From the NCBI GenBank assembly GCA_013044195.1, contig JABEUV010000114.1:1-62764 (forward strand): 62,764 nucleotides of DNA. The letters are read 5' to 3'. The position numbers were made by a program, and so were the translations under genes. Origin of the DNA: Elusimicrobiota bacterium (lineage in GTDB: Bacteria > Elusimicrobiota > Elusimicrobia > UBA1565 > UBA9628). The notes under the pieces are model-generated. The model was not told the origin of the DNA, ran no database searches, and saw nothing but the letters and a program-made list of their open reading frames with translations. The stretch's first letter is position 1; the number at the start of each line of letters is the position of its first letter. Shown in pieces: positions 28,053 through 49,074 of the stretch.

Positions 28053-28087
28053 AATGTTGCTAGACTCAATATGAGGTTCGTGCTTAT

Positions 28088-28116
28088 ATTGTAGCGCTTC
28101 GCGAAAGCAAGACCAA
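28088..28116 (-). promoter_or_regulatory. Candidate sigma-70 promoter for the kinase/regulator operon (TTGGTC - 17 nt - TACAAT on the minus strand)
   Basis: The minus strand reads TTGGTC ttgctttcgcgaagcgc TACAAT, ending about 35 nt upstream of the ATG at 28052. It is in the 71-nt divergent gap shared with the rpoN-like gene. Confidence 0.4.
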
Positions 28117-28123
28117 GAATAAA

Positions 28124-30250: not shown

Positions 30251-31657
30251 TTAGAAGCCGACTTCGAACTGCACCGACACGCGGTCGCCCAGCGGCGCCA
30301 GCGTCGCGCTGTTGGCGGCCAGCGTCGGCTGGTAGAGCACCGTGCTGTTTTGGTAGTCCCGCTTCGTGTCCACCGAGTACTCGATGAAGCCCTTGAGGTT
30401 GGGCGTGAAGTAGTGCGCCAACTGGGCCGTCACGTAGTTGAACTGTTGCGTACCGTTGTAGGTCGTCAGCCAGTTCTCGCGCACCAGCGGCACCAGGAAC
30501 GGCGTGTCTTCTCCGTGGCGCTTGTAGTAGTAGGCAAGCTCCGCGTAGGCGGCCTTGTTGGTGTCGTTGAGCTGATAGACGCTGTCGTAGTCGTGGCTGT
30601 ACAGGAAGGCCCCGCGCGCGGCGAAGCCGTTGTACTCCCACAGCGCGTCGAAGCCGCCGCGCTGGAACTGTTCAAGCTCCGTTCCGTTGCCCACGCCTCC
30701 GGGCAGGAAATTGCCGCCCAGGCCGCCGGCGGCGGTGGGGCGCTCCTGGCCGTAGGAACCGAAGGTTCCGATCATGATGCCGTTGCCGTTGTCGAGCGCC
30801 AGGCGGATGTTGCCGTTGGTCGGTGCGCTGCCCTGAACGCCGGTGTTGCTGTCCTTTGAGGCGCCGGCGGCATAATACAGGAACGAATCGCCGCGCAGGT
30901 TGACCTGGCCGTTGACGCCCACCAACTGCTGCATGGTCAGCATCGTGTTGCCGCTGATGGATCCCTGCCCTTGCATCAGCAGGTCGGTGGCGCGGTTGGC
31001 GATGGTCGGCGTCTCATTGGAGACGATGGTCTGATACGGATCGTCGGCGAAGAAGTTTCGCCGCGCCATGATGACGTTCATCCACTGGAACGGGTGCCAG
31101 CCCAGCCGGATGTCGCCCATGCCCGGAGTAAAGCCGCCCGGCGCGTTGGCGTCGAGCTCGCCCAGGTAGGAGATGTGGCGCGCCACGTCGCCGCCGGCGA
31201 TGAAGGCGTCCACGTCGTTGATCGGCTGGGACTGGAAGCCGTTCGGGTTCGGACCCGCCGTGCCGCCCATCTGAGCGCCTTGGCTGGACATGTTGCCGTG
31301 GCCGTTATCGATGGGCCGCGCGCGCACGATCACCGCCCACGGCGTCATGGCCTCGGTCCACAGGCTGCCGTCCTGGCTCTTGAGCACGCCGTCGCTGCCG
31401 TCGCGCTCGCGCACGAAGCCGTTCATCTTGAACTGGCGGCCGTAGGCGTTGAGCACGGGGTAGCCGGCGTGGCACTGGGAACAGGACATCTTGTACTTGC
31501 GGGCGAACGAAGGCAGGGCTTCGGCCTGATCGACGCCGTCGGGCCGGACGGGGCAACGATGCATCAGACGGCTGATCGCGGGCGGAGCGATCCAGGCGGC
31601 GGCCAGGGCGGCGGCGACAAGCGCGCCCCGGGCGGCGCTGTGACGATTTAGACTCAT
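30251..31657 (-). CDS. Outer-membrane beta-barrel (porin-like) protein with an N-terminal CxxCH motif
   Basis: ATG at 31657 follows AAAGGAG. Signal peptide, then KMSCSQCHAGYPVLNAYGRQFKMNGF near the mature N-terminus. Alternating beta-strand pattern, ending ...VSVQFEVGF. Confidence 0.72.
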   Translation of the reverse strand: MSLNRHSAARGALVAAALAAAWIAPPAISRLMHRCPVRPDGVDQAEALPSFARKYKMSCSQCHAGYPVLNAYGRQFKMNGFVRERDGSDGVLKSQDGSLWTEAMTPWAVIVRARPIDNGHGNMSSQGAQMGGTAGPNPNGFQSQPINDVDAFIAGGDVARHISYLGELDANAPGGFTPGMGDIRLGWHPFQWMNVIMARRNFFADDPYQTIVSNETPTIANRATDLLMQGQGSISGNTMLTMQQLVGVNGQVNLRGDSFLYYAAGASKDSNTGVQGSAPTNGNIRLALDNGNGIMIGTFGSYGQERPTAAGGLGGNFLPGGVGNGTELEQFQRGGFDALWEYNGFAARGAFLYSHDYDSVYQLNDTNKAAYAELAYYYKRHGEDTPFLVPLVRENWLTTYNGTQQFNYVTAQLAHYFTPNLKGFIEYSVDTKRDYQNSTVLYQPTLAANSATLAPLGDRVSVQFEVGF

Positions 31658-31879
31658 GAATGATCTCCTTTGGATACGGGCTTGCCGCCGCATACGGCGA
31701 GCGGTCGACTATCGTTACGCAACGATTCGTCCGAACAAGGGTTTTTTAAGGTGCATCGCGCAGGAATTATGCAAATTTTTCTATTCTTGAGCGGCGGATT
31801 TTTTCGCGGAAGGCGCTGAAGCGCAAGGTCGTCTTCGGATGGACCGCGGCGACGCGGCGGCGCATGATGTCTCCGGCGT

Positions 31880-33019
31880 TTATGGAAATTCCTTCGCGAC
31901 GGCCCTGGGAAGAAGGACGGAGAAGCGGCTGCCTTCGCCCGGCGTCGACTCGACGCGGATGTCTCCGTTCATCGCGGACAGGGCGCGGCGGCAGAAAGCC
32001 AAGCCCAAGCCCGTGCCCTTCGTTCGTCCTTGCCGGCGCGCCTGCGCCTGGTGGTAGCGGTCGAAGAGAAGCGGAAGCTCTTCTTCGGGGATTCCGGGAC
32101 CATTGTCCGTCACATGGAAAAGAATGACGTCCGGCGACGCCGCGTCCAGAGAAAGCTCCACGCGGCCTCCTTCCGGCGTATACTTTATGGCGTTGTCGAG
32201 AAGATTCTGTAGAATCCGCTCCAAGAGGGATTCGTCGGCCAGCACGCGCGCGGGGTCCGTCGCGCGCACGGTCAGCGACACGCCGCGCGAGCGCGCCAGC
32301 GGCTCCTGGTCCGCCGCGCAGCGCGCGGCGACCTCCGCGCCGTCGAGTTCCCGCGCCTCGACCGGCATCAGTCCCGCGTCGAGCTTGGCGACGTCCAGGT
32401 AAAGGTCGAGGAGTTCGGCCATGCGGCGGCAGTTCGCCACGCCGATGCGCAGGTTCTCGGCGTCGAGCGTCACCGGCGCGCCGCCCTGCGCGTCGTCCTG
32501 GAGGGACGCCAGCACGGCTTGGATGCTCGTCAGCGGATTGCGCAGGTCGTGGGCGAGCATGTGGCGCCAATCCGCGCGCTCCGTCTCCAGGCGCTCCTGG
32601 GCCGTGGCGTCCTCGATGATGGTCAGCCGCTTGCCCGGATGCGCGCGGTCAAGCCAAGCCGTCGCGGTCTTCAGGCAGCGCACGCGCAGGCTTTTGCGCT
32701 CATCGACCCGGGAGATCGCGTCGTCGCGCCACGCGAAGAACGGCTTGGCGCCGTAGCGGCCTTGGAAGGTCGCCGCCGTCGCGGAGCTCCCGGCCTTCTT
32801 CAGCGCGCAGGCGCGAGCGCAGTCGTCTCCGTCCGGGCACGTCAGGCGCGCGCAGAGAAGGTCGCAGAGGGACGCCTCGCCGATTTGATCGAGACCGAAG
32901 CCTAAAAGACGCTCGGCGGGCGGGTTGAGATAAAGGATGCGGCCGTTGTCGTCGGACAGGCAGATGCCGTCGGTGAGCTGATCAAATAGAGGCAACAGCG
33001 CCGCGGCGTTTTCACTCAC
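31880..33019 (-). CDS. PAS-domain sensor histidine kinase with a Cys-rich PAS region
   Basis: PAS domain (DDNGRILYLNPPAERLLG) containing CDLLCARLTCPDGDDCARAC. H-box LAHDLRNPL and an HATPase domain. Confidence 0.9.
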   Translation of the reverse strand: MSENAAALLPLFDQLTDGICLSDDNGRILYLNPPAERLLGFGLDQIGEASLCDLLCARLTCPDGDDCARACALKKAGSSATAATFQGRYGAKPFFAWRDDAISRVDERKSLRVRCLKTATAWLDRAHPGKRLTIIEDATAQERLETERADWRHMLAHDLRNPLTSIQAVLASLQDDAQGGAPVTLDAENLRIGVANCRRMAELLDLYLDVAKLDAGLMPVEARELDGAEVAARCAADQEPLARSRGVSLTVRATDPARVLADESLLERILQNLLDNAIKYTPEGGRVELSLDAASPDVILFHVTDNGPGIPEEELPLLFDRYHQAQARRQGRTKGTGLGLAFCRRALSAMNGDIRVESTPGEGSRFSVLLPRAVAKEFP

Positions 33020-33842
33020 GGCCGCCTCCCGAAGCCGCGGCGGGAATGGCGAGTACCGGAATCGGAGAGAAGCGCGCCAGGCGTTCGGCCGTGGTTCCCA
33101 GGACCATGTCGCCGAGCAGCGATTTGGGGCGGGCGAGAAGAACCATTAAATCACGACCGCGCGTAGCCCTTAAAATCGTCGGGACGGGCCGGCCGAGCTT
33201 GACCTCGGCCGTCGGATGAGTGTCGCGGCGCACGTTCTTCGGCAGGCGGCGCAGACGAGCGGAAAGCAGGCGTTCCGGATTCGTGCCGAAGATGGGATCC
33301 TCGATGACGTGGAGGACGTCGAGCCGGGCCTTGAACGCGCGCGCGACAAGCCCCGCGGCGAGCAATCCGCGCGCGGCGTCGCGGTCCTCGGCGATGGGCG
33401 CCAGCACGCGCCGGGGCGGGCGGAAGTTTTTACGCACCACGAGCACGGGCGCCGGGGACTCGCGGATGACCGACTCCGCGACCGAACCGAGTAACGCGCG
33501 CAGGAGCCCGCGCCGTCCGTGCGTGCCCACGACGACGAGGTCCGCTCCGCGCCGGCGCGCGACGCGCGCAATCAGCGTCGCGGGCTCGCCGTAGCCCGCG
33601 TGCAGCGGCAGGTCGCCGGTCACGCGCAAGCGCAGGTTTCGGACGGTGCGTCGCAGGTTTTCGCGGTCTTCCGCGTAGGGTCCGTAGGCGAAGAGCTCCG
33701 CGGTGAGAGGGGCCTCGCAGTAGACGGCTTCCAGCGACGCATGGCAACGACGCGCCAGCAACTTGGCCGCGCGCAACGCGCGCGCGGAGGCGTCGGAGAA
33801 ATCGACGGCGACGAGGATGCGGCGAGGTGGAAAGCGCAACAT
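33012..33842 (-). CDS. Tandem universal stress protein (two UspA domains)
   Basis: RILVAVDFSDAS..., DLVVVGTHGRRGL...GSVAES, and a second Usp repeat. Overlaps the downstream kinase gene by 8 nt. Confidence 0.9.
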   Translation of the reverse strand: MLRFPPRRILVAVDFSDASARALRAAKLLARRCHASLEAVYCEAPLTAELFAYGPYAEDRENLRRTVRNLRLRVTGDLPLHAGYGEPATLIARVARRRGADLVVVGTHGRRGLLRALLGSVAESVIRESPAPVLVVRKNFRPPRRVLAPIAEDRDAARGLLAAGLVARAFKARLDVLHVIEDPIFGTNPERLLSARLRRLPKNVRRDTHPTAEVKLGRPVPTILRATRGRDLMVLLARPKSLLGDMVLGTTAERLARFSPIPVLAIPAAASGGGRE

Positions 33843-35786: not shown

Positions 35787-38147
35787 ATGAAAACCATCGC
35801 GCGAAAACCGCTGTCCGATCAGGAACTCTCGCGCCTCGACGCCTACTGGCGCGCGGCCAATTATTTGTCGGTCGGGCAGATTTATCTGCTCGACAACCCC
35901 CTGCTCAAGGTTCCGCTGGAGCGCGCGCACGTCAAGCCTCGCCTGCTGGGCCACTGGGGCACGACGCCGGGCTTGAACCTGATCTATGCTCACGTCAACC
36001 GGCTGATCCGCGCGCGCGGTCTGGACGCTTTGTTCATCGCCGGTCCCGGCCACGGCGGCCCCGCGGCCGTCGCCAACGCCTACCTGGAAGGCACCTACAG
36101 CGAGGTCTACCCGCACATCACGCGCGACGAGGACGGCCTGCGTCGGCTTTTTAAGCAGTTCTCGTTTCCGGGCGGCATTCCCAGCCATGTGGCGCCGGAA
36201 ACGCCGGGTTCGATTCATGAAGGCGGGGAGCTGGGCTATGCGTTGGCTCACGCCTACGGCGCGGTCTTCGACGATCCCGACTTGCTGGCGGTGTGCGTGA
36301 TCGGCGACGGCGAAGCCGAGACCGGTCCGCTGGCGGCGAGCTGGCACTCCAACAAGTTCCTCAACCCGCGGCGCGACGGCGCGGTGCTGCCCATCCTCGC
36401 GCTCAACGGCTACAAGATCGCCGGGCCCACGGTGTTGGCGCGCATTCCCGAAAGCGAGCTCCTCTCCCTTCTGCGCGGTTACGGCTACGACCCGGTGATC
36501 GTCTCCGGCGACGTTCCCGCGCGCGTCCACCAGCGCATGGCCGCCGCGTTGGACGCGTGCGCCGACAAGATCGCGCAGATCCAGCGCGCCGCGCGCGCGC
36601 GGCACGCGCGCTCCGTGCGCCCGGCCTGGCCGATGATCGTCCTGCGCACGCCGAAAGGCTGGACCGGACCGAAGGTCGTCGACGGCCGGCCGATCGAGGG
36701 CACGTTTCGCGCCCATCAGGTGCCGATGGGCGACATGGACAAGCCCGAGCATCTGACTTTGCTCGAGTCGTGGATGAAGGGCTACCGGCCGGAGGAGCTC
36801 TTCGACGCGCGCGGACGCCTGCGCGCGGAGTTGGCCGCGCTGGCGCCTAAGGGAGTTCGGCGCATGAGCGCCAGCGCGCGCGCCAACGGCGGCTTGCGCC
36901 TGCGCGATCTGCGCCTGCCGGACTATCGCGCGTATGCCGTCGACGTGCCTCGCCCGGGGGCCGCGGACTCCGAAGCCACGCGCGCGCAGGGGCGCTTTCT
37001 GCGCGACGTGCTCAAGGCCAACCGCCGCACTTTCCGCGTGTTCGGCCCCGACGAGACGGCGTCCAACCGCTGGAACGCGGTCTTCGAGGTCGACCAGCGC
37101 TGTCTGATGGCGGAGATCCTGCCCGGCGACGAGGCCGTCTCCCACGACGGCCGCGTCATGGAGGTTTTGAGCGAACACATGTGCCAGGGCTGGCTGGAAG
37201 GCTACCTGCTCACCGGCCGCCACGGCTTCTTCAACTGCTACGAGGCCTTCATCCACATCATCGACTCCATGTTCAACCAGCACGCGAAGTGGCTGAAGGT
37301 CACGCGCGGTCTGCCCTGGCGCAAGCCCATCGCCTCGCTGAATTACCTGCTGAGCTCCCACGTCTGGCGCCAGGACCACAACGGCTTCTCTCACCAGGAT
37401 CCGGGCTTTCTGGACCATGTCGTCAACAAGAAAGCCGAAGTCGTGCGCGTCTATCTGCCGCCGGACCAGAACACCTTGCTGTCCGTGACCGACCACTGCC
37501 TGCGCAGCCGCGGCTACGTCAACGTGGTGGTGGCGGGCAAGCAGCCCGCGCCGCAGTGGCTGACCATGGACCAGGCCGCCGCGCACTGCGCGGCCGGCGT
37601 CGGGATCTGGGATTTCGCGGGAGACCCCGGGGAGCCCGACGTGGTTCTGGCGTGCTGCGGCGACGTGCCCACACTGGAGATTTTGGCCGCGGCGGCCCTG
37701 CTGCGTGCCGCCGAGCCGGACATCAAGCTGCGGCTGGTCAACGTCGTCAACCTGATGAAGCTCCAGCCGCGCGAGGAACACCCGCACGGCCTGTCCGATG
37801 AGGAATTCCTCGACCTCTTCACGCGCGACAAGCCGGTGGTCTTCGCCTTTCACGGCTACCCGTGGCTGATCCACCGCCTGACCTACCGCCGCCCCAACAG
37901 CGCGAACATTCACGTGCGCGGCTACAAAGAAGAGGGCTCGACGACGACGCCGTTCGATATGGCCGCGCGCAACGACATGGACCGCTACCGCTTGGCCATC
38001 GATGCCGTCGAGCGCGTGCCGCGCTTCTCCGCGCGCGCCGACGCTCACCGCCGCGCGTGGAGCGAGAAGCTGGCGGCCAATAAGGCCTACATCGCCGAGC
38101 GCGGCGAGGACCTGCCCGAGATCCGTGACTGGCGCTGGTCGCGCTGA
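35787..38147 (+). CDS. xfp: Phosphoketolase (xylulose-5-P/fructose-6-P)
   Basis: 786 aa. The N-terminus [21 protein letters not shown]...[10 protein letters not shown] and a full-length ThDP-enzyme layout are typical of Xfp. Confidence 0.96.
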
Positions 38148-38172
38148 GGGATTCCTGCTTCCGGAAGACCGC

Positions 38173-40551
38173 ATGACAGACCGCTCTCACGAAAGGCTGA
38201 TGGAGCAGATTCTTGAATGCGTGGGAGAGGCCATCCATGTGCTCGACATGGAGGGTCTGGTCGTCTATGAAAACGCTCATGCCGTGAATATGTTCGGCGG
38301 CGGGATGATTGGAAGGCGCGGACACGAGATCGTTCATTCGCGCCGGGAGGACGGAACGCCGTGCCCGATCGAGCAGTGTCCGATCACATTGACTTTGCAG
38401 GACGGGCGTCTGCGGCGCGTGTCGGATGATTTCTTTTGGCGTCAGAACGGTAGCGGATTTCCGGTGGACTATACCTGCGCGCCTCTGCGCGGCGGCGAAG
38501 GCGCCATGACCGGCGCCGTGGTCAGCTTCCGCGACGCTTCCGCGTTTCGCAATGCCTCGAACGTCGTGCGCGCCCATGAAGACGAACTTCGCCTTCTGAC
38601 GCGCCAATTGGAGAAGGAGCGCGCGTGCCTGATCGCAGCCCAGGCGGTGGCCAAGATCGGAAGCTGGGAGACCGATCTGGCGACCCTAAGCGCGGAATGG
38701 TCCGAGGAGGCTCACCGTATTTTCGAAACGGACGGCGCCGTTTTCCGGCCCACGCATCAAGCCTTTCTGGCCATGGTGCATCCCGAAGACCGCGCGCGCG
38801 TGGACGAAGCTTTCGGGGATTCGCTCAAAGACGATTCCGCGCGGGTGATCGAACACCGTGTTCTCTTACCCGACGGGCGCATTAAAACGGTCGAAGAGCG
38901 CTGGCGGGTGTTCGCCGACGCGTCGGGCCGCTTCGTTAAGGCGGTCGGGACATGCCAGGATATCACCGAACGAAAACGGACCGAAGGCCTGCTGCGCGAG
39001 AGCGAGGAAAAGTTTACTCAGCTCTTCGAATCCAGCCCCGCGAAGATCGCCATCGGCGACATGTTCGGTCGGATGGTGGACGTTAACGAGGCCTACGCGG
39101 AGTTTCTCGGATATGCGCGTCGGGAGATGGCGGGCCGCAGCCTCGCGGATCTGGGGATCCTGCCGCCGCAAGAATTGGAAAGGCTTATTCAAAAAGGCCG
39201 CGGGCCGGGGGCGGCCATGCGCGACGTCGAGGTCAAAATGACGGCGCGGGACGGCCGGCCGCTGCAGGTGCTGATGTCGGCGAACATACTTGTATTGAAC
39301 GGAGTGCAACACCGCGTCGCGACTTTGGTGGACATCACGGAGCTGCGACGCGCCGAAGAAGAGCGGCGTCGCCTGCAGGAGCAGGCCTTGCGCGCGCAGC
39401 GAGTGGAAAGCATCGGAACGCTGGCCGGAGGCATTGCTCATGATCTAAACAACAGCTTGTCGCCGATCATGATGTCCCTGCAGCTGCTGAGGATGAAGCT
39501 TCCCGATTTGGATTCGAAAGAACTGATCGACACTTTGGAGGGTTGCGTTCAGCATGCGGCGGACATGGTCCAACAGGTGCTGACCTTTTCCCGGGGCGTC
39601 GAAGGCCGCCGGATCGCCGTGGATCCGTTGGTCGCGGCCGGAGATATCCGCAAGATCGTGCGCGACACTTTCCCCAAGACGATCGAATTCGAGTTGGCCG
39701 CGGCGCCGGAGGTCAGGAGCGTCCTTGGCGACCCGACTCAGTTCTACCAGGTGCTGTTGAATCTCTGCGTCAACGCGCGCGACGCCATGCCCGCGGGCGG
39801 CAAGATCACGGTGACCATCGACAACGTGCGTCTGAGCGTGACGGATGTCGAACGCCTGGGCGGGGGGGCTCCCGGCGACTGCGTGCTTCTCGTGGTTTCA
39901 GACACGGGCATCGGGATTCCGCGAGAAAATCGCGAAAAAGTATTTGAACCGTTCTTCACCACCAAGGGCGTCGGCCAAGGCACGGGATTGGGCTTGTCGA
40001 CCACGCTTGCCATCGTCAAGAGTCACGGCGGCGCCATCGCGCTGGAAAGCGAGCCGGGGCGAGGATCTCGATTTCTCGTCTATTTGCCCGCCGCCCCGCT
40101 CGGCCCGACCGCGCGCGGTTCCTCCGCGGCGGAGCTTCCGTGCGGACGCGGCGAGAGGCTTCTCGTCGTCGACGACGAGGTCGCCATCCGCAACCTGCTC
40201 AAGAGAATTCTTGAATCTTACGATTATCGAGTGATGCTTGCGGCGGACGGGCGGGAGGCCGCGGCGCTCTACGCTCAGCACGGCCCATCCATCGCGGCCG
40301 TGCTGACCGATATGGCCATGCCCGGCATGGGCGGGGCGGCGCTGATTTCCGCGCTGCGCGCAATGAACCCCGCGCTCGTCATCCTGGCTTCCAGCGGACA
40401 CTCGTCGGACGTTGAGAAGTCTCAAGTTCTCTGCGACCCCTCGATACGATTCCTCGCCAAACCGTACTCCACCGAGGCGCTGTTGAAGAATATCCGGAGC
40501 GTCCTCGACGCGGGCGGCGGGGCCGGTGAACCGCGTTCGGTCCCGACGTAA
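38173..40551 (+). CDS. Hybrid sensor histidine kinase (three PAS, HisKA, HATPase, receiver)
   Basis: ATG at 38173, in frame with the track ORF. H-box IAHDLNNSL, G-box GTGLGLS, and a C-terminal receiver RLLVVDDE...DMAMPGMGG. Confidence 0.92.
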   Translation: MTDRSHERLMEQILECVGEAIHVLDMEGLVVYENAHAVNMFGGGMIGRRGHEIVHSRREDGTPCPIEQCPITLTLQDGRLRRVSDDFFWRQNGSGFPVDYTCAPLRGGEGAMTGAVVSFRDASAFRNASNVVRAHEDELRLLTRQLEKERACLIAAQAVAKIGSWETDLATLSAEWSEEAHRIFETDGAVFRPTHQAFLAMVHPEDRARVDEAFGDSLKDDSARVIEHRVLLPDGRIKTVEERWRVFADASGRFVKAVGTCQDITERKRTEGLLRESEEKFTQLFESSPAKIAIGDMFGRMVDVNEAYAEFLGYARREMAGRSLADLGILPPQELERLIQKGRGPGAAMRDVEVKMTARDGRPLQVLMSANILVLNGVQHRVATLVDITELRRAEEERRRLQEQALRAQRVESIGTLAGGIAHDLNNSLSPIMMSLQLLRMKLPDLDSKELIDTLEGCVQHAADMVQQVLTFSRGVEGRRIAVDPLVAAGDIRKIVRDTFPKTIEFELAAAPEVRSVLGDPTQFYQVLLNLCVNARDAMPAGGKITVTIDNVRLSVTDVERLGGGAPGDCVLLVVSDTGIGIPRENREKVFEPFFTTKGVGQGTGLGLSTTLAIVKSHGGAIALESEPGRGSRFLVYLPAAPLGPTARGSSAAELPCGRGERLLVVDDEVAIRNLLKRILESYDYRVMLAADGREAAALYAQHGPSIAAVLTDMAMPGMGGAALISALRAMNPALVILASSGHSSDVEKSQVLCDPSIRFLAKPYSTEALLKNIRSVLDAGGGAGEPRSVPT

Positions 40552-40578: not shown

Positions 40579-40602
40579 ACGTCATTTAAGGTGAGGAAGC
40601 GA

Positions 40603-41070
40603 ATGCGTTTGTTGAGTGGTCCTATTCCGGATAATAAAATCCGGATTACCGGCCTGTCGACGACGGTGCGCCACGCGCTTCAGGCGCTGGCGGGGATGCG
40701 AGTGCGGGCCCAGCGTGCCGGCGACGTCGCGCGGCGCCGCGGCCTGCCGGAGGCCGCGCTGTCCAAGATATTCCAGCGTCTGGCCAAGTTCGGCCTTCTG
40801 GAATCTCGGCGCGGTCCCGGCGGCGGCTACCGGTTGGCGCGTTCGCCCGCGGAGACCAGTCTGGCGGCCGTCGCCGACGCGTTGGAGCCGTCGGACCGGC
40901 GGCACGGGCGCTGCCTGATCGAGGATCGACCGTGCGGCGGCGGCGCCGTCTGCGCGCTGCACGAGGCCGGCGTCGCTGCGGAGGCGCAACTGCGTGGGGC
41001 GATGTCGTCGTTGACCCTCGCCGATCTGGCGCCGCGCCGACGCGTGGCCGCCGGCCGGGCGGCGAAATAA
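40603..41070 (+). CDS. Rrf2-family transcriptional regulator (NsrR/IscR-like, three clustered Cys)
   Basis: HTH LSKIFQRLAKFGLLESRRGPGGGYRLAR. Cys ligand spacing is C..x6..C..x5..C (RCLIEDRPCGGGAVCALH). The ATG at 40603 follows AGGTGAGGA. Confidence 0.9.
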   Translation: MRLLSGPIPDNKIRITGLSTTVRHALQALAGMRVRAQRAGDVARRRGLPEAALSKIFQRLAKFGLLESRRGPGGGYRLARSPAETSLAAVADALEPSDRRHGRCLIEDRPCGGGAVCALHEAGVAAEAQLRGAMSSLTLADLAPRRRVAAGRAAK

Positions 41071-41071
41071 C

Positions 41072-41551
41072 ATGTCCTGGGCCGACGCGACGGTTCACTG
41101 GCTGCACCTGACCGCGGCGATCCTCTGGGTCGGCGGGACGTTGTTCACGTCTTTGGTCGTGCATCCGGTCCTGAGCGAGAAGCTTTCCGTTGGAGAGCGC
41201 TCGGCCGTTTACGAGGCGTTGGGGCGGCGGCTCAACGCCGTGCAGTGGGGGACCTGGGCGGTTCTGCTGGCGACGGGCCTTTGGAAATTGTGGGGACTGC
41301 GCGCGACGCCCGACGTTTTTCTGGGGCCGTTCGGCCGCATTTTGGCCGTCAAGTTGACGCTCGTGGCGCTGATGGTCGCGCTGAGCCTGATCCACTCGTT
41401 GTCCTGGGGGCCGGCGCTCACACGCGGCAACCTGACGCCCCCGGCGCGCGCGGCGCTGGCCCGTCGCGCCGCTTTCTGGGGAAAAATCAACGCGCTGGTG
41501 ATGCTCGCCATCGTGTTCTGCGCCGCTTTGCTGAGGTATAACCCATGGTAA
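41072..41551 (+). CDS. CopD-like 4-TM membrane protein
   Basis: HWLHLTAAILWVGGTLF motif, four hydrophobic helices, 159 aa. Confidence 0.65.
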   Translation: MSWADATVHWLHLTAAILWVGGTLFTSLVVHPVLSEKLSVGERSAVYEALGRRLNAVQWGTWAVLLATGLWKLWGLRATPDVFLGPFGRILAVKLTLVALMVALSLIHSLSWGPALTRGNLTPPARAALARRAAFWGKINALVMLAIVFCAALLRYNPW

Positions 41552-41757
41552 ATGAAAAAGAAGAGCCGACTTTGGAACTGACCGTGCTGGAGACGCTGGA
41601 GCGCTGGCCCGCCGCGCGCGCGGTGCTGGTCGCGCGCGGGCTGGACCTGTGCTGCGGCGGCGTGCATCCGGTAGGAATGGCGGCGCGCGCGCACGGCGTG
41701 GACCCCGAGGCGCTTCTCGCGGAGCTGCGCTCGGCCGCGAGCGACGGTCGCGTGTGA
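41545..41757 (+). CDS. Stand-alone ScdA_N / DUF542-like domain (N-terminal domain of YtfE/DnrN-type iron-centre repair proteins)
   Basis: 70 aa with DLCCGG (compare DYCCGG of YtfE) followed by AARAHGVDPEALLAEL. Overlaps both neighbours. Confidence 0.72.
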   Translation: MVNEKEEPTLELTVLETLERWPAARAVLVARGLDLCCGGVHPVGMAARAHGVDPEALLAELRSAASDGRV

Positions 41758-43091
41758 ACGGCGAGGCGCCTAAGCCGGCGGCGTTCCGGGGCAGCGGGCC
41801 TTTTCTGCGTACCGCGCCGCCTCTGTGGCTGCCTCTACGCCACTTCGCGCTGGCGTCCGCGGCGCTGCTGGTCTTCGCGGGCGGTGTCGCCTGGCGCGGA
41901 GGGGATTTGGTCGGTTTTGATTTCAACGCGCGCTTCGCGCTGGGGCTGGTGCACGTCTTGACGCTGGGCTGGGTCGCGCAAACCATTCTAGGAGCTTGGT
42001 GCCAGATGCTGCCGACGCACGGGGAGACGCCGCTGGCGTTTCCGCGGATCGCGACGGCCGGCTGGTGGCTCTTCGCGCTGGGTGCGGCGGCGTATGTCGG
42101 CGCGCTGTGGGGCGGAATTGAGCGCTATTGGGTCCCGGTGTCGGCCGCCGCGGCCGGGCTGGCGCTGGAGCTTTTCGCGCTGGCCGCCACGCACGCGCGC
42201 GCGCGAAAGCGCGATGAGACGTGGCTTCATTTTGCCGCGGCGCTGGGTTGGCTGGCCGCGCTGGCGACGGCCGGCGTGCTGCTGGCCTACGACCGCGAGC
42301 GCGGGCTGCTGTTTGGCGACCCGGAGGGCGCGTTGATCGCGCACGTGCACATGGCGCTGATCGGCTTCGTGGCGACGGCGATCTACGGCGCGGGCCGCCG
42401 CCTGATTCCGTGGGTCGCGCTGAGCCAGGTCCGCGGGCGCTGGGCGGGACGCGCGAGCTTCGCTTTGACGCAGTTGGGTCTGGCGGGGCTCGCGCTTGAT
42501 GCCTTGTTCTTCGGCCGTCGGCTGATGCCGCTCTGGGCGCTCCTGATCGCGGCGGGCTTCGTTTTGTATGCGCTCCAACTGGGACCGCTGTTTGGCGGCG
42601 GCGCGTCGTTTGAGCCGTCCTTGGCGTTGACCTTGCTGTCGTTTGCCGGCGGCGTCTTATGGGCGGCGCTCGGCCTGGGGCTGGCGTTCGGACGCTTCGC
42701 CGACGCGGCGCCGGCGCGCGCGGCCTACGTCTGGGCGGCGCTCGTCGGCTGCGTGACGCCGATGATCCTGGCCCAGGTCCACAAGATCGCGCCGTTTTTG
42801 GTCTGGCTGCACGTCTACAGCCCGCGCGATTGGACGCCGCCGGTCAAGGTTCCCAAGATCGACGATCTGACCAGCCGCGGCTTGGCGTGGGCGGAGTTCT
42901 TCGCGCTGGCCGTCGCAGCACCCCTGGGAACGGCGGGTTTATGGTTGGAGCGCGGCGGGCTGGTGCGGGCGGCCGGCTTCTGCCTATCCGCGGCGGCCGC
43001 GGGCTACGCCTGGAATCTCGGTCTAGCTCTGCGGCACGTCGTGCGCCCCGACGGGCGCTGGACGCTGCCGACGGTTCACGCGGGAGAATAA
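41754..43091 (+). CDS. 12-TM histidine-rich integral membrane protein, paralog A (possibly NnrS-like; family unassigned)
   Basis: The GTG at 41754 overlaps the upstream stop (GTGTGA). About 12 hydrophobic helices. Conserved LGLVHVLTLGW, ALIAHVHMALIGF, QVHKIAPFLVWLH. By eye, roughly 45-50% identical to the ORF at 43825-45135. Confidence 0.8.
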   Translation: MNGEAPKPAAFRGSGPFLRTAPPLWLPLRHFALASAALLVFAGGVAWRGGDLVGFDFNARFALGLVHVLTLGWVAQTILGAWCQMLPTHGETPLAFPRIATAGWWLFALGAAAYVGALWGGIERYWVPVSAAAAGLALELFALAATHARARKRDETWLHFAAALGWLAALATAGVLLAYDRERGLLFGDPEGALIAHVHMALIGFVATAIYGAGRRLIPWVALSQVRGRWAGRASFALTQLGLAGLALDALFFGRRLMPLWALLIAAGFVLYALQLGPLFGGGASFEPSLALTLLSFAGGVLWAALGLGLAFGRFADAAPARAAYVWAALVGCVTPMILAQVHKIAPFLVWLHVYSPRDWTPPVKVPKIDDLTSRGLAWAEFFALAVAAPLGTAGLWLERGGLVRAAGFCLSAAAAGYAWNLGLALRHVVRPDGRWTLPTVHAGE

Positions 43092-43112
43092 AGTCCCAAA
43101 GGAGAAATCGCA

Positions 43113-43556
43113 ATGGCTGACGAAATGATTTCGGATTTTTTTAAAAAGGATCACGACGAGATCGACGCGCTGCTGGCGGCCGTCGATTTCGATCGGCCCA
43201 AGGAAGCCCTGCCGATTCTCGCGGAGTTCGACCGGAGGCTGGAGCGGCACATCGTCTGGGAAGAGGAGATCCTGTTTCCGACGGCGGCGCGCCTGGCGCC
43301 CCCGTTGGCGCACGGGCCCATCGCCGTCATGCTTGAAGAGCACATACTCATCCGCAAGGACAAGCGGGACGCCCTTGAGCGGCTTGCCGCGGGAGACGGA
43401 GCCGGCGCGAAACGTTCCACCGCCGCGATGCTGGAGGTTCTGGGCGGGCACAACATGAAGGAAGAGCAGATTCTCTATCCGACGTGCGACCGCGTCCTGG
43501 CCGGCGCGCAAGCGGCGCGGGTGATGGACGTCATCCGCGAAAAGAGCCGCGGCTAG
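43113..43556 (+). CDS. Hemerythrin-domain protein
   Basis: DFFKKDHDEID, LERHIVWEEEILFP, MLEEHILI, GGHNMKEEQILYP. This is a classic HHE pattern. Confidence 0.85.
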   Translation: MADEMISDFFKKDHDEIDALLAAVDFDRPKEALPILAEFDRRLERHIVWEEEILFPTAARLAPPLAHGPIAVMLEEHILIRKDKRDALERLAAGDGAGAKRSTAAMLEVLGGHNMKEEQILYPTCDRVLAGAQAARVMDVIREKSRG

Positions 43557-43852
43557 GGCATCAGCCGACGGCGTCCTTCCGCGGAGAGCATCGCCGGAGA
43601 CCAGGGCGGGTCCCAGTCGAGCGTGATGGAGACGGCGCGGTTTCCGGCGACGTCGTCGAGCGCGTCCTGCGCCATCTGGATGATCGTGGGGCCCAGCGGG
43701 CAGCCTTGCGACGTGAGCGTCAGGCGCACGTCCACGCTTGCCGGAGTCACCTCCAGTCCATACAGGAGGCCCATCGTCACCACGTCGAGTCCCACTTCGG
43801 GGTCGATCACCGAACCCAAGGCGGTCAGCGCGGCGCGCTTGTCTTTGTCCAT
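43553..43852 (-). CDS. DUF59 / SufT-like metal-sulfur cluster assembly domain protein
   Basis: MDKDKRAALTALGSVIDPEVGLDVVTMGLLYG...TSQGCPLG. The ATG at 43852 overlaps the upstream gene end by 28 nt. Confidence 0.78.
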   Translation of the reverse strand: MDKDKRAALTALGSVIDPEVGLDVVTMGLLYGLEVTPASVDVRLTLTSQGCPLGPTIIQMAQDALDDVAGNRAVSITLDWDPPWSPAMLSAEGRRRLMP

Positions 43853-45135
43853 GCTCCCTCCCGAATGAGAAACGATAGGCTCAGTCCCGTGTTGACGGCG
43901 TAAAGTGTGGCGGTCGCCAGGAGGAACAAGGATCCCGCGCGCAGCAGCGTCTGTGATCCCATCAGGAAGCCCGCGGTCCCGAGCGCGACGGCGGGGACCA
44001 TGGCGAAAAATTCCACCCAGGCAAGCCTTTCGCTGGCCAACTCCGTCATCTTGGGAGGAGGGCTCTTCGCAGTCCAGGGGCGGCTGCCGAACAGGTGCAG
44101 CCAGACGAGGAAAGGCACGATCTTGTGGACCTGCCCCAGAATGAACGGCGTGGCCCAGCCCACGAGGGCGGCGTAAATATAAGCGGCCAGGATGTTGGCG
44201 TCGTCGCGCAGAAACCCGAACGCAAGCCCGACGCCGAGCAAGACCCAGACCGCGCCGCCGGTCAAGGCGAGGAGCGTGTAGGCGAGGGCCGGGTCGATGC
44301 GCCGGTTGCGCGCGGAAAAAATTCGCCGCATCTGCCAGGCGTAGGCTGCGTAGGCCGCCGCGAGCAGGCACGCCCAGAGGGGCAGCAGCCGGCGGCCGAA
44401 GAATAGACCGTCCGCCGTCAACCCGGCGAGGCCCGCGAGCGTCAGGACCAGCGCAAGCCTCCCCGGCGTCTTGGAGTCCACGTGCGCGAGCGCGAACATC
44501 GCGACCAGTCGGTACGACACGCCGACGATCGTCAGCGACACCCAGCCCACGAGGGCCAGATGAACGTGCGCGATCAGCGCGCCGTGCGGATCATGAAAGA
44601 GTATGCCGCGTTCGCGGTCCCAGGCCAGCATCAACCCCAGCGCGATCACCGCGGCGAGGAGCGAAATCGAGACGGCGAGGTGGCGCGCCGTCCAGTCCAG
44701 ACGGGGGGCCAGGATCATCGTGCGCGCAAAGCAGGCGAGATAGACTCCGACGGACCCGACGAGCAGGACCGCCGCAATCCAATAGCGGCTTCCGCCCAGC
44801 CACAGCTCCCCGACGAAGCCAGAGAGCCCCAGGATGAAGGCCCACCATGCCCAACGTGCGGCCTCCGGCCAAGCCAGAGGCGTTTCCCAGAGCACGGCCG
44901 AAAGCTGGCAGATCGCCCCGAAGATCGTCATCGTGATCCAGCCCAACGTCAGGACGTGAACCAGGCCGAGGACCCATTCGGCCCGGAAGCCGAAGTCCAG
45001 GAAGCGGTCCGTTCCCCACGCGAACGCGGCCGCGAAAATCCAGAAGGCGACGGCCGCGGCGGCGAAGTGCCGCATCGGCAGGTCGATCGGCGGGGATTTG
45101 GCGAGATTGAGGGGCGGGGCGGACGCCGTGCTCAT
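43825..45135 (-). CDS. 12-TM histidine-rich integral membrane protein, paralog B
   Basis: 436 aa with the same motifs as paralog A (LGLVHVLTLGW identical; ALIAHVHLALVGW; QVHKIVPFLVWLH). The start overlaps the upstream stop (ATGA). Confidence 0.8.
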   Translation of the reverse strand: MSTASAPPLNLAKSPPIDLPMRHFAAAAVAFWIFAAAFAWGTDRFLDFGFRAEWVLGLVHVLTLGWITMTIFGAICQLSAVLWETPLAWPEAARWAWWAFILGLSGFVGELWLGGSRYWIAAVLLVGSVGVYLACFARTMILAPRLDWTARHLAVSISLLAAVIALGLMLAWDRERGILFHDPHGALIAHVHLALVGWVSLTIVGVSYRLVAMFALAHVDSKTPGRLALVLTLAGLAGLTADGLFFGRRLLPLWACLLAAAYAAYAWQMRRIFSARNRRIDPALAYTLLALTGGAVWVLLGVGLAFGFLRDDANILAAYIYAALVGWATPFILGQVHKIVPFLVWLHLFGSRPWTAKSPPPKMTELASERLAWVEFFAMVPAVALGTAGFLMGSQTLLRAGSLFLLATATLYAVNTGLSLSFLIREGAWTKTSAPR

Positions 45136-45371
45136 CGCGATTTCCGGATCGTCAGGCGATAGCGGTTCTCGGCGAGCTTGATGATCTCGTGCGCGAAGCC
45201 CGCCGCGTCCAGGTGCGCATACAGCGGCACGGGTTCCCGGAAATGCTCCACGACGAGACGGTCCTCGGGTCCCAGCGCCGTCACCGCTTCAAGAATGCGG
45301 ACCATCGGCTCCGGCGGCTCGAGGTCGCTTACGTCGAGGTTCACCGTTTTTCCTTCGCTCGGCTTATCCAT
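45132..45371 (-). CDS. DUF2249-like (TusA-fold-like) small protein
   Basis: 79 aa: LDVSDLEPPEPMVRILEAVTALGPEDRLVVEHFREPVPLY. There is no Shine-Dalgarno sequence before the ATG at 45371. Confidence 0.72.
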   Translation of the reverse strand: MDKPSEGKTVNLDVSDLEPPEPMVRILEAVTALGPEDRLVVEHFREPVPLYAHLDAAGFAHEIIKLAENRYRLTIRKSR

Positions 45372-45435: not shown

Positions 45436-46143
45436 TCAGCCGGCGCCGTCGCGCAGCGCCGCGGGCTTGAGTATTTTGATGCGCTTCCAGCGCGCGTCGA
45501 TGAGGCCCGCCTCGCGCAGCCGTCCGAGGACTCGGATCGCCGTCTCCACGGTGGTGCCGGCCATCTCGGCCACCTCCTCGCGGCCCAGGCGCAGTTCCGG
45601 ACCAAGAGAGAGCGACAGCATCCAGAGGATGTAGCCGATGCGGCGCTCGGCGGGCTCCTTGACCATGGAGCGCAATGCCTGGGAGTGGCGCAGGTGATCG
45701 CCGACCTCGGCGTAGACGGCCTGCGAGAACGGCGGATGGCGGCGCAGCAGTTCGTCGAAGTCCGCCGTGCGGATGCGGTAGACCTCGCTGTCTTGAAGGC
45801 ACACGGCGTTCACGGGGTAAGGCCGCTTGTCGAGAGCGGGCATCATCCCGAAGAGACGCCCGGGAACGATGATCTCGAGAATCACCGGATCGTCCTTCGG
45901 CGACAGCTTCACCGCCTTGATCAGCCCCGAGCGCAGCAGGTACGCCGCGTCCGCCGCCGCGCCCTCCGAGAAGATCGTCTCTCCCCGGGGGTGGCGGCGC
46001 AGGACGAACGCCCGAGAAACGCGCTCCAGGTCCGCGGACGCAAGGCCTTTCAGGAAGGGGATTTTGGCGAGAAAAGAATCCACGAGTTCGATGATATCAA
46101 TTCCCTTCCGGGCTAAGGACCTGAGCGCCTTCCGACGAGACAA
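45436..46143 (-). CDS. Crp/Fnr-family transcriptional regulator
   Basis: cNMP-binding-like beta-roll (RGETIFSEGAAADAAYLLRSGLIK) and a C-terminal HTH (REEVAEMAGTTVETAIRVLGRL). No N-terminal Cys cluster is seen, so it looks Dnr/NnrR-like rather than FNR proper. Confidence 0.9.
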   Translation of the reverse strand: MSRRKALRSLARKGIDIIELVDSFLAKIPFLKGLASADLERVSRAFVLRRHPRGETIFSEGAAADAAYLLRSGLIKAVKLSPKDDPVILEIIVPGRLFGMMPALDKRPYPVNAVCLQDSEVYRIRTADFDELLRRHPPFSQAVYAEVGDHLRHSQALRSMVKEPAERRIGYILWMLSLSLGPELRLGREEVAEMAGTTVETAIRVLGRLREAGLIDARWKRIKILKPAALRDGAG

Positions 46144-46177: not shown

Positions 46178-46735
46178 TCAGTGTCCGTGACCGCCGCAGC
46201 CGCAGCCGCCGGAGCGAGCGGCCTTCTTGTGGAAATAGACCTTCCAGTCGTCCTCGGCGAGGCGTTCCGCCCAGGCCTCGAAGCCTTTGCCGCCCAGCAG
46301 TTGATACAGCGGGCGCGGCTCGAAAATCGCGCGCAATACGAATACGCCGCCCTCCGCGGTCTGCGTCGCCGCGGCCATGATCTTGGGGAAAGGTTCCAAG
46401 CCCGCGCGCAGATCTTCACGAACGTCGACGACATTCGCCGAGTCGGGCTTGGCCCATGCCGGACGCGCCGTTTCGGCGCCCGGGGCCGCCGCGCCCGAGC
46501 CCGCCGCCACGCGCTTGATCAGCACGGACCACTGCTCCGGACCCTTCTCGACGGCCGTCCACTCGAACTCGCCCGCGCGCTCGGCGCTGAACTCGTAGAA
46601 AAGCGGCTTAGGATCATGGTCGTTGACGAGCTTGAGCGCTTTCCCGACGGGGAGCTCTTCCCAGGCCTTGAAAATCTTCGGGTGCCTCTCGCGCGGCGGC
46701 ATCGATCTCACGTCGACCAGCACTTCTTGCTCCAT
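46178..46735 (-). CDS. Double DUF2249-like protein with C-terminal Cys/His tail
   Basis: First half: RHPKIFKAWEELPVGKALKLVNDHDPKPLFYEF. The second half resembles the 45132-45371 product. It ends ...SGGCGCGGHGH. Confidence 0.78.
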   Translation of the reverse strand: MEQEVLVDVRSMPPRERHPKIFKAWEELPVGKALKLVNDHDPKPLFYEFSAERAGEFEWTAVEKGPEQWSVLIKRVAAGSGAAAPGAETARPAWAKPDSANVVDVREDLRAGLEPFPKIMAAATQTAEGGVFVLRAIFEPRPLYQLLGGKGFEAWAERLAEDDWKVYFHKKAARSGGCGCGGHGH

Positions 46736-46929: not shown

Positions 46930-47053
46930 GCGAACAGGGCGTTCCTATCCATGTGATGATAATGAAGACTCGATTCTGGGCTCTTTGACATCTCGTGAAG
47001 GCTGTTTTCGGCATGGCGCGCCGAGCGCGATAAGATCACAATAATAGCAAGCG
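46930..47053 (+). repeat. Conserved ~120-nt element, copy A, upstream of the plus-strand gene at 47130
   Basis: Hand alignment with the reverse complement of 51941-52061 gives 75 of 93 core positions identical without indels. Perfect blocks are TTCCTATCCAT, GATTCTGGGCTCTTTGAC and GTTTTCGGCATGGCGC. Confidence 0.85.
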
Positions 47054-47436: not shown

Positions 47437-47823
47437 ATGGCCTTCCTCCTTGTCGTCGACGATGATGCCGACGTGTTGGATTTGCTCGATTGGCATTGCC
47501 GTGAGCGCGGGCATGCGGTCGCCGTCGCCTCGTCTTGCGAAAAGGCATTGACTTGGCTGCGCGTCGCCCGGCCGCCTCGCCTGATCCTGCTCGATTTCTT
47601 TCTGCCGAAGATGGACGGGGCCTGTTTCGTCGAGTTGTTGCGCGCCGGCGAATCAACCAGGGCGATCCCGGTGATTATTATGAGCGCCGCCTCGCCGGAT
47701 TGGGTTGCGCGGAGACTCGTCCCCGACCCCCTCGTGCGGGTGGTATGCAAGCCTTTCGACTTCGCGAGTCTGGATCGGATGATCGAAGAATCGATGTCTG
47801 CGTCCGGCGCGGAGGGTGATTAG
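47437..47823 (+). CDS. Single-domain response regulator (CheY-like receiver)
   Basis: LLVVDDDADVL..., phospho-acceptor LILLDFFLPKMDG, and conserved KPF near the C-terminus. Confidence 0.88.
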   Translation: MAFLLVVDDDADVLDLLDWHCRERGHAVAVASSCEKALTWLRVARPPRLILLDFFLPKMDGACFVELLRAGESTRAIPVIIMSAASPDWVARRLVPDPLVRVVCKPFDFASLDRMIEESMSASGAEGD

Positions 47824-47827
47824 CGCG

Positions 47828-48685
47828 TCAGAAATCAAAAAACTTGAAAGCATTCAGTTCGATGCCGACCAAGGCCGTGTCGGGGCCCTTGCGGCAGGTC
47901 CTCAGGATCGCGGACCCGTGGAACGCGTCGCTCAGCCGGACGCTGTACGCTTGGAATTCGCTCAGCGAGCAGCGCAGAACGTAGGATTTGCAGAACAGCC
48001 GCCGTCCGCTCGGCTTTTGCAGTTCCCGCCACAATCCCGTGAGCTTCCCGTAGGCCTGGACCAGACGCGGATCGTTCGTGTTATTGGAGACCATGATTTT
48101 TTCGGGCCCGGGGCACCAGAAGCGGCCCGTCGCGTCCCGCTTGAGGATGCCCGCGGATTTCAACTGCTCCGCGGCCTTGCGGACTTTCTCCGGGTCGAGC
48201 TTGAGCAGGCCCGCCAAATCCCCGGGGCTCCAGCGCCGCAGGTCGTTGGAGAGTATTTCATAAACGCCGTACGCCGCCGGGCTCGAGCAGTAGGCGAGCA
48301 CCTGCTGCGCGGAAATCGGGCGCGAGTTTTCCCGGGCGTGCCGTACGAGCGCGCTCTGGATATCCGGCTCTTGGTTGTGTCCGCCCTTGAGCCACGCGGA
48401 GCGCAGCAGGTCCATGAGATCGGCCGGGAATTTCTGCCGGAAGTACTCCTCCAGCAGGCGCCGCGCCGAGTCCAGGTCCTCGCGAAACCCCAGCGCCGCG
48501 CACACCGCCGCCAGGAGCCGCTCGCTGGGCCCGCAGCGGCCTTTCTCGACGTTCGCGTAATGGCGGTAGGTGCAGCCGAAGTGCCCCGCGCCGCCGGCGG
48601 TCCTGTAGAACTTCCTGGCCGAGGCGAATCCCCTCTCCTCGCGCATGTTGACCAGCATCAATCCGAAACGGCCCCAATCTTCCAT
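47828..48685 (-). CDS. HTH-like N-terminus plus DUF4423-like region (recalls the TIGR02147 family)
   Basis: The ATG at 48685 is preceded by GGAGGAG. 285 aa. N-terminus: RGFASARKFYRTAGG...YRHYANVEKGRCGPSERLL. The family call is from memory and unverified. Confidence 0.55.
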   Translation of the reverse strand: MEDWGRFGLMLVNMREERGFASARKFYRTAGGAGHFGCTYRHYANVEKGRCGPSERLLAAVCAALGFREDLDSARRLLEEYFRQKFPADLMDLLRSAWLKGGHNQEPDIQSALVRHARENSRPISAQQVLAYCSSPAAYGVYEILSNDLRRWSPGDLAGLLKLDPEKVRKAAEQLKSAGILKRDATGRFWCPGPEKIMVSNNTNDPRLVQAYGKLTGLWRELQKPSGRRLFCKSYVLRCSLSEFQAYSVRLSDAFHGSAILRTCRKGPDTALVGIELNAFKFFDF

Positions 48686-48738
48686 TGCTCCTCCGAAATA
48701 CCGCCGCCCGGACATTCTCTCAAATGCCGCCGCGCTCT

Positions 48739-49074
48739 TCACGGCGCGACGGTCAGCTGGCAGGCCGCGCCGGCGCCGTACGGCGCGGCGGCGACCGTGA
48801 CGCCTGCGGCGGTCGCGCACGCGCAGGAGCAGCCGCCGCCCGCGCAGGCCACCCCCGCCGCGGACGCGCAACTGGCGCCCGCCAGCGCCCACGCGGCCGC
48901 CACTTGATCGAGCGCCGACTGCGCGGAGACGTCCTGCGTCGCGCGGTCGACGGCACCGGAGGTTTCCCGCGCGGCCTGCAGCCGCCAGCGCAGGGTCATG
49001 GCCGTGATGAGGCACAGAATCACGATCACGACGAGCGTCGACGCCATCACTTGGCCGCGCGGAGCTTTCGTCAT
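48739..49074 (-). CDS. Pilin-like small protein (hydrophobic N-terminal helix, Cys/Ala/Gly-rich C-terminus)
   Basis: MTKAPRGQVMASTLVVIVILCLITAMTL. The start overlaps the upstream stop (ATGA). Confidence 0.5.
   Translation of the reverse strand: MTKAPRGQVMASTLVVIVILCLITAMTLRWRLQAARETSGAVDRATQDVSAQSALDQVAAAWALAGASCASAAGVACAGGGCSCACATAAGVTVAAAPYGAGAACQLTVAP

Follow-up and report, generated by a model that had tools for sequence, protein, structure and literature searches.

Paralogous 12-helix membrane proteins of an Elusimicrobiota bacterium belong to the haem–copper oxidase superfamily and may bind a single haem in the response to nitric oxide

Contig JABEUV010000114.1 of an Elusimicrobiota bacterium (assembly GCA_013044195.1), a stretch of 62,764 nt that was analysed as a whole and is called the window below, encodes two proteins with 12 transmembrane (TM) helices each: A (445 aa; positions 41754–43091, + strand, GTG start) and B (436 aa; 43825–45135, − strand, ATG start). 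By fold and by profile, A, B and their relatives belong to the superfamily formed by subunit I of haem–copper oxidases (HCOs) and nitric oxide reductases (NORs). Taking placement and function together as one proposition, we consider it fairly probable that A and B are diverged paralogues within a large, uncharacterised 12-TM inner-membrane family of this superfamily, and that the family consists of membrane haem b proteins with a protective part in the response to nitric oxide (NO) and denitrification stress.

Fold, triplication and conserved residues

The placement in the superfamily is carried by a sequence profile and a structural model. A profile of 25 family members matches residues 302–406 (helices 9–11) of the cbb3 oxidase protein CcoN with an E value of 2.5e-8, and hhalign gives the alignment of family and CcoN a probability of 95%. 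An AlphaFold2 model made on the 25-member alignment (pLDDT 92.9, pTM 0.92) has 12 long helices, including TM2 (52–82), TM6 (183–214) and TM10 (313–349; residue numbers here and below are those of B), which are the helices to which an earlier note, made from the letters of this DNA, had assigned three histidine-containing motifs. In a Foldseek search of the PDB, all of the top 50 matches were HCO or NOR subunit I, the best being CcoN (3mk7/6xkw, TM-score 0.74–0.75), with NorB at 0.62–0.64. For NnrS, which the earlier note had also proposed for comparison, hhalign of the family profile against a Mesorhizobium protein gave a probability of 0.1%.

A and B share 203 identities over 421 positions (48%; BLASTP, E = 2e-105), well above what chance would give and close to the half that had been estimated by eye. 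Both contain the same 11-mer, LGLVHVLTLGW (63–73 in A, 56–66 in B), ALIAHVH stands at 193 in A and 186 in B, QVHKI at 341 and 335, and FLVWLH at 348 and 342, so that all the shared motifs described earlier were found where they had been placed. H67, H197, H199 and a tyrosine of A correspond to H60, H190, H192 and Y319 of B. The description 'histidine-rich' does not hold, as each protein has 10–11 histidines in about 440 residues (2.3–2.5%).

Searches with the individual sequences gave little. The Pfam COX1 model (PF00115) matched B below threshold, with residues 187–252 on profile positions 343–407 at 15.5 bits against a cut-off of 34.8, and did not match A; some homologues carry a precomputed PF00115 match. 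Neither protein had a family match in an NCBIfam scan, and a search of PDB chains with the single sequence of B returned no match. A homologue search found 212 relatives, the best 88% identical, all labelled 'hypothetical protein' and most of them from metagenome-assembled genomes (MAGs) of Elusimicrobia. The family is not mentioned in a paper on Elusimicrobia genomics (10.1101/765248).

The protein is a clear triplication of one four-helix unit. When a 255-sequence alignment was split into three thirds, comparison of TM1–4, TM5–8 and TM9–12 with one another gave hhalign probabilities of 98–99% with E values of 1e-14 to 1e-16. The second helix of every unit carries a common motif ending in G-W, and this repeat defines a register of two positions per unit: L58 and H60 in TM2, H190 and H192 in TM6, and Y319 and Y321 in TM10. 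In a three-by-three comparison of family units with CcoN units, all three family units were most like CcoN TM9–12, a result compatible with a collinear as well as with a circularly shifted correspondence. In a mean-field direct coupling analysis of the 255 sequences, the highest-ranking pairs were artefacts of gaps near the termini and TM6/TM12, and no helix contacts were taken from it. Counted by eye on the model helices, loop lysines and arginines number about 19 on the side of the N terminus, taken as inside, and 8 on the other, which places the C terminus, any domain fused to it and a conserved face made up of R276, D281 and the K338-I-x-P-F-L-V-W motif in the cytoplasm.

Conservation was read from 146 representatives clustered at 50% identity or below. 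Two histidines, H60 in TM2 and H190 in TM6, are present in 100% of them and are the only universal histidines in the family; G73 is likewise at 100%, Q77 at 97% and K338 at 95%. Conserved columns are densest in TM2, TM6 and TM10, and TM1, TM4, TM8, TM9 and TM11 contain none at 80% or above. The earlier note had taken the histidines of all three motifs to be conserved within the membrane. This is borne out for H60 and H190 but not for H192 (66% His) or for the helix-10 residues H337 (10% His, 60% Tyr) and H347 (41% His), the last two of which lie towards the cytoplasm in a helix of 37 residues, at its end, and not at the depth of the TM2 and TM6 histidines. Position 321 is variable. The two outcomes that had been named in advance as telling against a cofactor-binding family, loss of the histidines in wider homologues and assignment by profile to a transporter family without cofactors, were not seen.

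Y319 is Tyr in 67% of representatives and hydrophobic in the others, and its presence follows that of H192: both residues are present in 92 representatives, both absent in 44, and only 10 are discordant. Joint loss is seen in several separate sequence clusters. Being kept or lost together across clusters, H192 and Y319 point to one coupled, dispensable site and not to the effect of a single clade.

Cofactor sites compared with oxidases, reductases and NnrS

The family shares with CcoN and NorB the overall 12-TM fold and an N-in topology, and with CcoN a helix in which an HxH motif is followed by xxxxGW (IAHVHLALVGW in the family, IGHVHAGALGW in CcoN). The HxH helix is TM6 in the family, however, and TM10 in CcoN and NorB. 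Two significant hhalign alignments of family and CcoN were obtained (CcoN numbering follows the Pseudomonas aeruginosa protein P0267; the CcoN profile is shallow, its homologue search having given only Pseudomonas sequences more than 80% identical). The longer is shifted by four helices and sets family residues 66–287 on CcoN 214–475. IAH190VH192LALVGW thereby falls on IGH346VH348AGALGW, and extending the alignment brings H60 onto H208, the CuB histidine of TM6. The collinear alternative, with a probability of 19%, is weak; in it the TM2 haem ligand H61 of CcoN falls on L58.

Canonical metal ligands are largely missing from the family. The TM7 His-His pair of CuB and FeB sites (PHHLH in CcoN) aligns to E110/L111, and no conserved histidine occurs in TM3 or TM7. 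The low-spin haem pair, made by the TM2 histidine and the second histidine of the TM10 HxH motif, is replaced by L58 and Y321, and the first histidine of that motif, the proximal ligand of the catalytic high-spin haem, has Y319 as its register equivalent. H192 occupies the register position of the TM6 CuB histidine. The motifs of the HPEVY and HHMF type are absent from A and B, as the earlier note had stated. An electron-entry subunit of the CcoO, NorC or CoxB type was not found among the window neighbours (by Pfam) or among the called genes of four family loci (L001–L004), where, window included, the only cupredoxin- or COX2-like match near family genes is NosZ in L003. The family thus differs from CcoN and NorB in the position of its HxH helix, in its ligands, in having no cytochrome c or cupredoxin subunit and in falling below the Pfam threshold.

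H60 and H190 as a pair have no canonical counterpart when the proteins are superposed collinearly, with the helices taken as numbered. HCOs reportedly contain three pores, each made up of an arc of four helices plus the final helix of the arc before it, a description attributed to Tsukihara in 1996. TM2 and TM6 jointly border only the TM3–6 pore, which holds no cofactor in oxidases. Because of this, and going by the repeat register and the pseudo-threefold geometry, we infer that H60 and H190 would face this one pore (TM3–6 plus TM2), empty in canonical oxidases, and would ligate a single haem b there, either as a bis-His pair or as one ligand with a distal histidine. Such a site would be related by pseudo-symmetry to the one that canonically holds the low-spin haem. 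H192 and Y319 may in addition hold a second, facultative His/Tyr-ligated cofactor at the usual catalytic position.

The earlier suggestion of haem and/or copper ligation can accordingly be divided. The invariant TM2 and TM6 histidines fit haem ligation, and haem binding by the family is likely; with no TM7 His-His pair and the other changes listed above, evidence for a copper site is nil, and copper binding appears unlikely. The predicted cofactor set would then differ from those of HCOs, NORs and NnrS alike.

NnrS is a haem- and copper-containing 12-TM protein of NO-responsive gene clusters of the NnrR, NsrR or Dnr type. Work in Vibrio cholerae and Rhodobacter makes a protective, not respiratory, role plausible for it, and the same is plausible for the present family, which has a similar size, 12 TM helices and a place in NO-response gene clusters. 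The two are nevertheless distinct in sequence: PF05940 has no match to A or B at E ≤ 0.1, and the GFRPFF motif, present as YGFRPFF in the Mesorhizobium NnrS, is absent from both proteins, as had been noted before. The same Mesorhizobium cluster contains a family gene and a separate NnrS gene, and the two proteins are therefore not interchangeable.

A closer precedent exists. In 2014, Pei, Li, Kinch and Grishin are said to have defined 'HCO homology' (HCOH) proteins, comprising four-helix single-unit and 12-helix three-unit families, with NnrS among the latter; most HCOH families reportedly have two conserved histidines, a single predicted haem and a context of denitrification and NO detoxification. 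Set against this definition, the family resembles the three-unit kind in having 12 helices in three four-helix units, each most like HCO helices 9–12, in its two universal histidines, and in its DUF2249 and denitrification or NO neighbours. A single-unit 4-TM relative in its operons, described below, adds to the likeness. By this definition, and by a passage on DUF2249 that cites Pei et al. 2014 in associating this domain with the HCO superfamily (PMC11218638), the family fits the three-unit HCOH kind.

Distribution, gene neighbourhoods and the locus in the window

When 1.84 billion representatives were searched with the profile, 1281 clusters (50% identity) were found at E ≤ 1e-30 and 2973 at E ≤ 1e-10. 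In GTDB species genomes, a single conserved peptide used as query hit at least 451 genomes from many phyla. Among these are Elusimicrobiota, Ignavibacteriota/Bacteroidota (with the cultured Rosettibacter primus and a MAG assigned to Ignavibacterium album), Gemmatimonadota, Verrucomicrobiota, Planctomycetota, Methylomirabilota, Rokubacteria, Myxococcota and Chloroflexota. Matches on plasmids came from Ensifer, Sinorhizobium, Mesorhizobium, Shinella and haloarchaea.

Gene order was compared across 84 family loci, searched with the window proteins and with neighbours drawn from other loci. A DUF59 gene is present in 74 of the 84 and lies nearly always immediately downstream of the family gene; DUF2249 (61 loci) is upstream of it in most. 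A protein of DUF1858-DUF2249-DUF2249 architecture, resembling Thermus DrpB, occurs in 60 loci, and in most loci it is this gene and a DrpA-like one that directly precede the 12-TM gene. Crp/Fnr regulators follow (49 loci), then 4-TM proteins of COX1-like/DUF2871 type (38), small ferredoxins (23), NosZ (16), Rrf2 regulators (12), ScdA_N proteins (10), hemerythrins (6) and CopD-like proteins (5; these adjoin family genes in L003, L020, L075, L083 and L084). Two subtypes can be told apart, the B-type accompanied by Crp, DUF2249 and DUF59 and the A-type by ScdA_N, DUF2249 and Rrf2; the window holds one gene of each. Among five Elusimicrobia loci of A-type (L003, L017–L019 and L021), all have an ScdA_N gene upstream of the A-type orthologue, L003, L017 and L019 have flanking Rrf2 genes, and three (L003, L017 and L018) have nosZ nearby.

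One of these neighbours appears to be a single-unit relative of the family encoded in the same operon. In L001, positions 9581–10036 (+) encode a 151-aa 4-TM protein with COX1 and DUF2871 matches and an AHTH motif, which aligns to TM5–6 of the family with a probability of 74%; genes of this type, in L001 and 37 other loci, stand just after DUF59 and are usually followed by the small ferredoxin. No such relationship is claimed for the CopD-like 4-TM protein, for which hhalign gave no match to the 12-TM family.

Some partners occur in one chain with the 12-TM protein. Three representatives (P0159, P0242 and P0195) have a C-terminal DUF59 domain and one (P0255) combines 12-TM, DUF2249 and ScdA_N; such fusions confirm a physical coupling of the 12-TM protein with these partners. 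A further representative of 862 aa (P0122) is a tandem of two 12-TM proteins, which hints at dimers, possibly A–B heterodimers.

In the window, the region consists of two convergent operons. The rightward operon, which holds A, begins with an Rrf2-family (NsrR-like) regulator (40591–41070, +; PF02082, E = 8.8e-24), followed by a 4-TM CopD-like/DUF4149/DUF2214 membrane protein (41072–41551, +; PF05425, 37 bits, cut-off 32.1) and a 70-aa ScdA_N (DUF542) protein with a CCGG motif (41545–41757, +; PF04405, 37.2 bits, cut-off 32.5). The ScdA_N gene, absent from the list of open reading frames (ORFs) because of its 80-aa cut-off, begins within the last codons of the CopD-like gene and runs into the start codon of A (GTGTGA). 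A longer start of A at 41649 was considered and is unlikely; we take the GTG as the start because the ScdA_N gene occupies 41545–41757 and homologues begin at this codon. Downstream of A lies a hemerythrin-like di-iron protein of the YtfE/RIC C-terminal-domain type (43113–43556, +; PF01814, E = 3.8e-16), which has sub-threshold NCBIfam matches to YtfE/RIC/DnrN models. With ScdA_N at 41545–41757 and hemerythrin at 43113–43556, A is flanked by what amounts to a 'split RIC/YtfE'.

The leftward operon, which holds B, begins with a 185-aa protein with two DUF2249 stretches (46178–46735, −; PF10006, E = 1.1e-42; ribosome-binding site (RBS) GAGGAGGA), DrpB-like but without the DUF1858 domain. It continues with a Crp/Fnr-family regulator (45436–46143, −; Pfam cNMP_binding and HTH_Crp_2) and a 79-aa single-domain DUF2249 protein, DrpA-like (45132–45371, −; PF10006, E = 3.3e-16), the gene for which runs into the start codon of B (ATGA). 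The last gene encodes a 99-aa DUF59/FeS_assembly_P protein (43553–43852, −; PF01883, E = 1.1e-15), shares 28 nt with the 3′ end of B and has the start and RBS GGGAGGGAG.

Other genes nearby encode PAS kinases, Usp proteins, a phosphoketolase, a response regulator and proteins of glycogen metabolism. PAS histidine kinases, one hybrid PAS-kinase-receiver and a lone receiver lie at 26964–28337 (−), 31880–33019 (−), 38002–40551 (+) and 47437–47823 (+), densely clustered around the locus, and are possible additional regulators of both operons; a tandem-Usp protein (33012–33842) and the phosphoketolase (35787–38147) adjoin this cluster. The FNR-type pattern TTGAT-N4-ATCAA, with up to two mismatches, occurs 18 times in the window against 6.2 expected, a number reached in 0 of 100 shuffles. 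The best site (48648–48661, one mismatch) is outside both operons, and a scan for FNR/Dnr boxes found no convincing site in either promoter region, the nearest being 46953–46966 with two mismatches. Elsewhere in the window, three long ORFs of 906, 480 and 395 aa (3508–6228, 30251–31693 and 47828–49015, all −) have a coding-like GC content at third codon positions and no Pfam match at the thresholds used, and a 500-aa protein (19910–21412, +) joins a CNNM transmembrane domain to a PTS EIIA-2 domain, an unusual pairing.

Proposed role, alternatives and significance

The partners of A and B are linked to NO stress and denitrification. In Thermus, DrpA (DUF2249) and DrpB (DUF1858 with two DUF2249 domains) modulate the transcription of nitrate-respiration genes through DnrS/DnrT, altering transcription from nar and dnr promoters, with DnrT as the master activator; DrpB is membrane-associated, and its membrane partner was not identified (PMC6282519). 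In Haloferax mediterranei, denitrifying conditions induce four DUF2249 genes (PMC11218638). The domains of RIC/YtfE/ScdA and of DrpA/DrpB, namely ScdA_N, hemerythrin and DUF2249, occur separated as partners of A and B; these are soluble partners and not relatives of the 12-TM protein.

We favour a protective protein that binds or removes NO. It would take up NO dissolved in the membrane and, together with iron-protein partners, either remove it or limit damage to iron centres, in a manner resembling that of NnrS. Judging from synteny and the fusions, the predicted cytoplasmic face of R276, D281 and K338-IxPFLVW would dock DUF59, the DrpA- and DrpB-like DUF2249 proteins, ScdA_N and hemerythrin, and the genes would be under the control of Crp/Fnr and Rrf2 regulators or else lie next to them. 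Several points weigh against this proposal. The geometry of H60 and H190 is read from the sequence register, and instead of haem the invariant pair could bind a metal, form part of a proton path or have a structural role. A nosZ gene lies within 7 kb in only 16 of the 84 loci, and no denitrification enzyme is found near the two operons in the window. The DrpA/B-like and Crp partners would suit a regulatory role equally well, and the evidence would fit O2, nitrite or redox state in the place of NO as the ligand just as well.

The main rival takes up this regulatory theme: the family would be a signal-transducing membrane sensor whose haem senses NO, O2 or redox state and whose cytoplasmic face signals through DrpA/DrpB-like proteins to a DnrT-like Crp/Fnr regulator and on to the genes of denitrification and nitrous oxide (N2O) reduction. 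The Crp/Fnr genes of 49 loci, the DrpA-like and DrpB-like genes directly upstream in about 60, the representative in which DUF2249 and ScdA_N are fused to the 12-TM protein, and the effect of Thermus DrpA/DrpB on nar and dnr transcription, with DrpB bound to a membrane without a known partner (PMC6282519), all speak for it. DUF59, as an iron–sulfur maturation factor, the ferredoxin and the 4-TM HCO-like protein suit an enzyme or repair complex better, A-type orthologues are without Crp, and an output domain is never fused to the protein; we regard the sensor as somewhat unlikely. A bolder combination, which we think unlikely, would make the family an HCO relative in which the sites of the cofactors are displaced about the pseudo-threefold axis, with a universal bis-His haem in the pore that is empty in all known oxidases and NO reductases and a facultative His/Tyr site at the catalytic position; with its docked partners it would form a membrane machine not recognised before, either an NO-processing enzyme free of metal B or the missing membrane sensor upstream of DrpA/DrpB–Crp control of denitrification and N2O reduction.

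Two further accounts are less likely than the protective role or the sensor, and each strikes us as very improbable. A new type of NO reductase or oxidase with genuine catalysis, haem-only or haem/haem and supplied with electrons by the ferredoxin or hemerythrin partner, would make sense of the HCO/NOR fold, of H192 and Y319 at the register of CcoN catalytic-site residues, and of the ferredoxin (23 loci) and nosZ (16 loci) neighbours. It has to contend, however, with the absence of FeB/CuB ligands (E110/L111 in place of the TM7 His-His pair), of a proximal histidine and of the low-spin pair, with operons that lack NorC, CcoO or a subunit II, with a third of the family that lacks H192/Y319, and with a COX1 score of 15.5 bits against 34.8. 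A protein without any cofactor, keeping the HCO fold as a scaffold, channel or transporter that moves iron, haem or a nitrogen oxide or anchors DUF59 and DUF2249, would agree with the loss of most canonical ligands and with the cytoplasmic K338-IxPFLVW as the best-conserved motif after the two histidines; haem-transfer proteins, moreover, typically have a tyrosine as ligand. The two invariant histidines stand, however, at the haem-ligand register of the repeat, about 7–8 residues into TM2 and TM6 on the outer side, as in HCOs, and the structural neighbours are all haem proteins, with no transporter among them.

A kind to which this family belongs is already recognised computationally, and what is new here are added members and some detail. 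The window's own contribution is modest, two more members, one of each subtype, in convergent operons; the co-varying pair H192/Y319, the fusions with DUF59 and with DUF2249 and ScdA_N, and the size of the family are results of the present analysis.

HCOs and NORs are central to respiration and to the emission of N2O, and their cofactor-poor relatives are abundant: the present family alone comprises at least 1281 clusters at 50% identity, without a Pfam model or a name. The family is closely tied to DUF59, DUF2249 (DrpA/DrpB), ScdA_N and hemerythrin and is often next to nosZ clusters of clade-II type. Its function, if found, would assign roles to several large DUF families together, and could show by what means numerous N2O reducers outside the proteobacteria sense NO or survive it.

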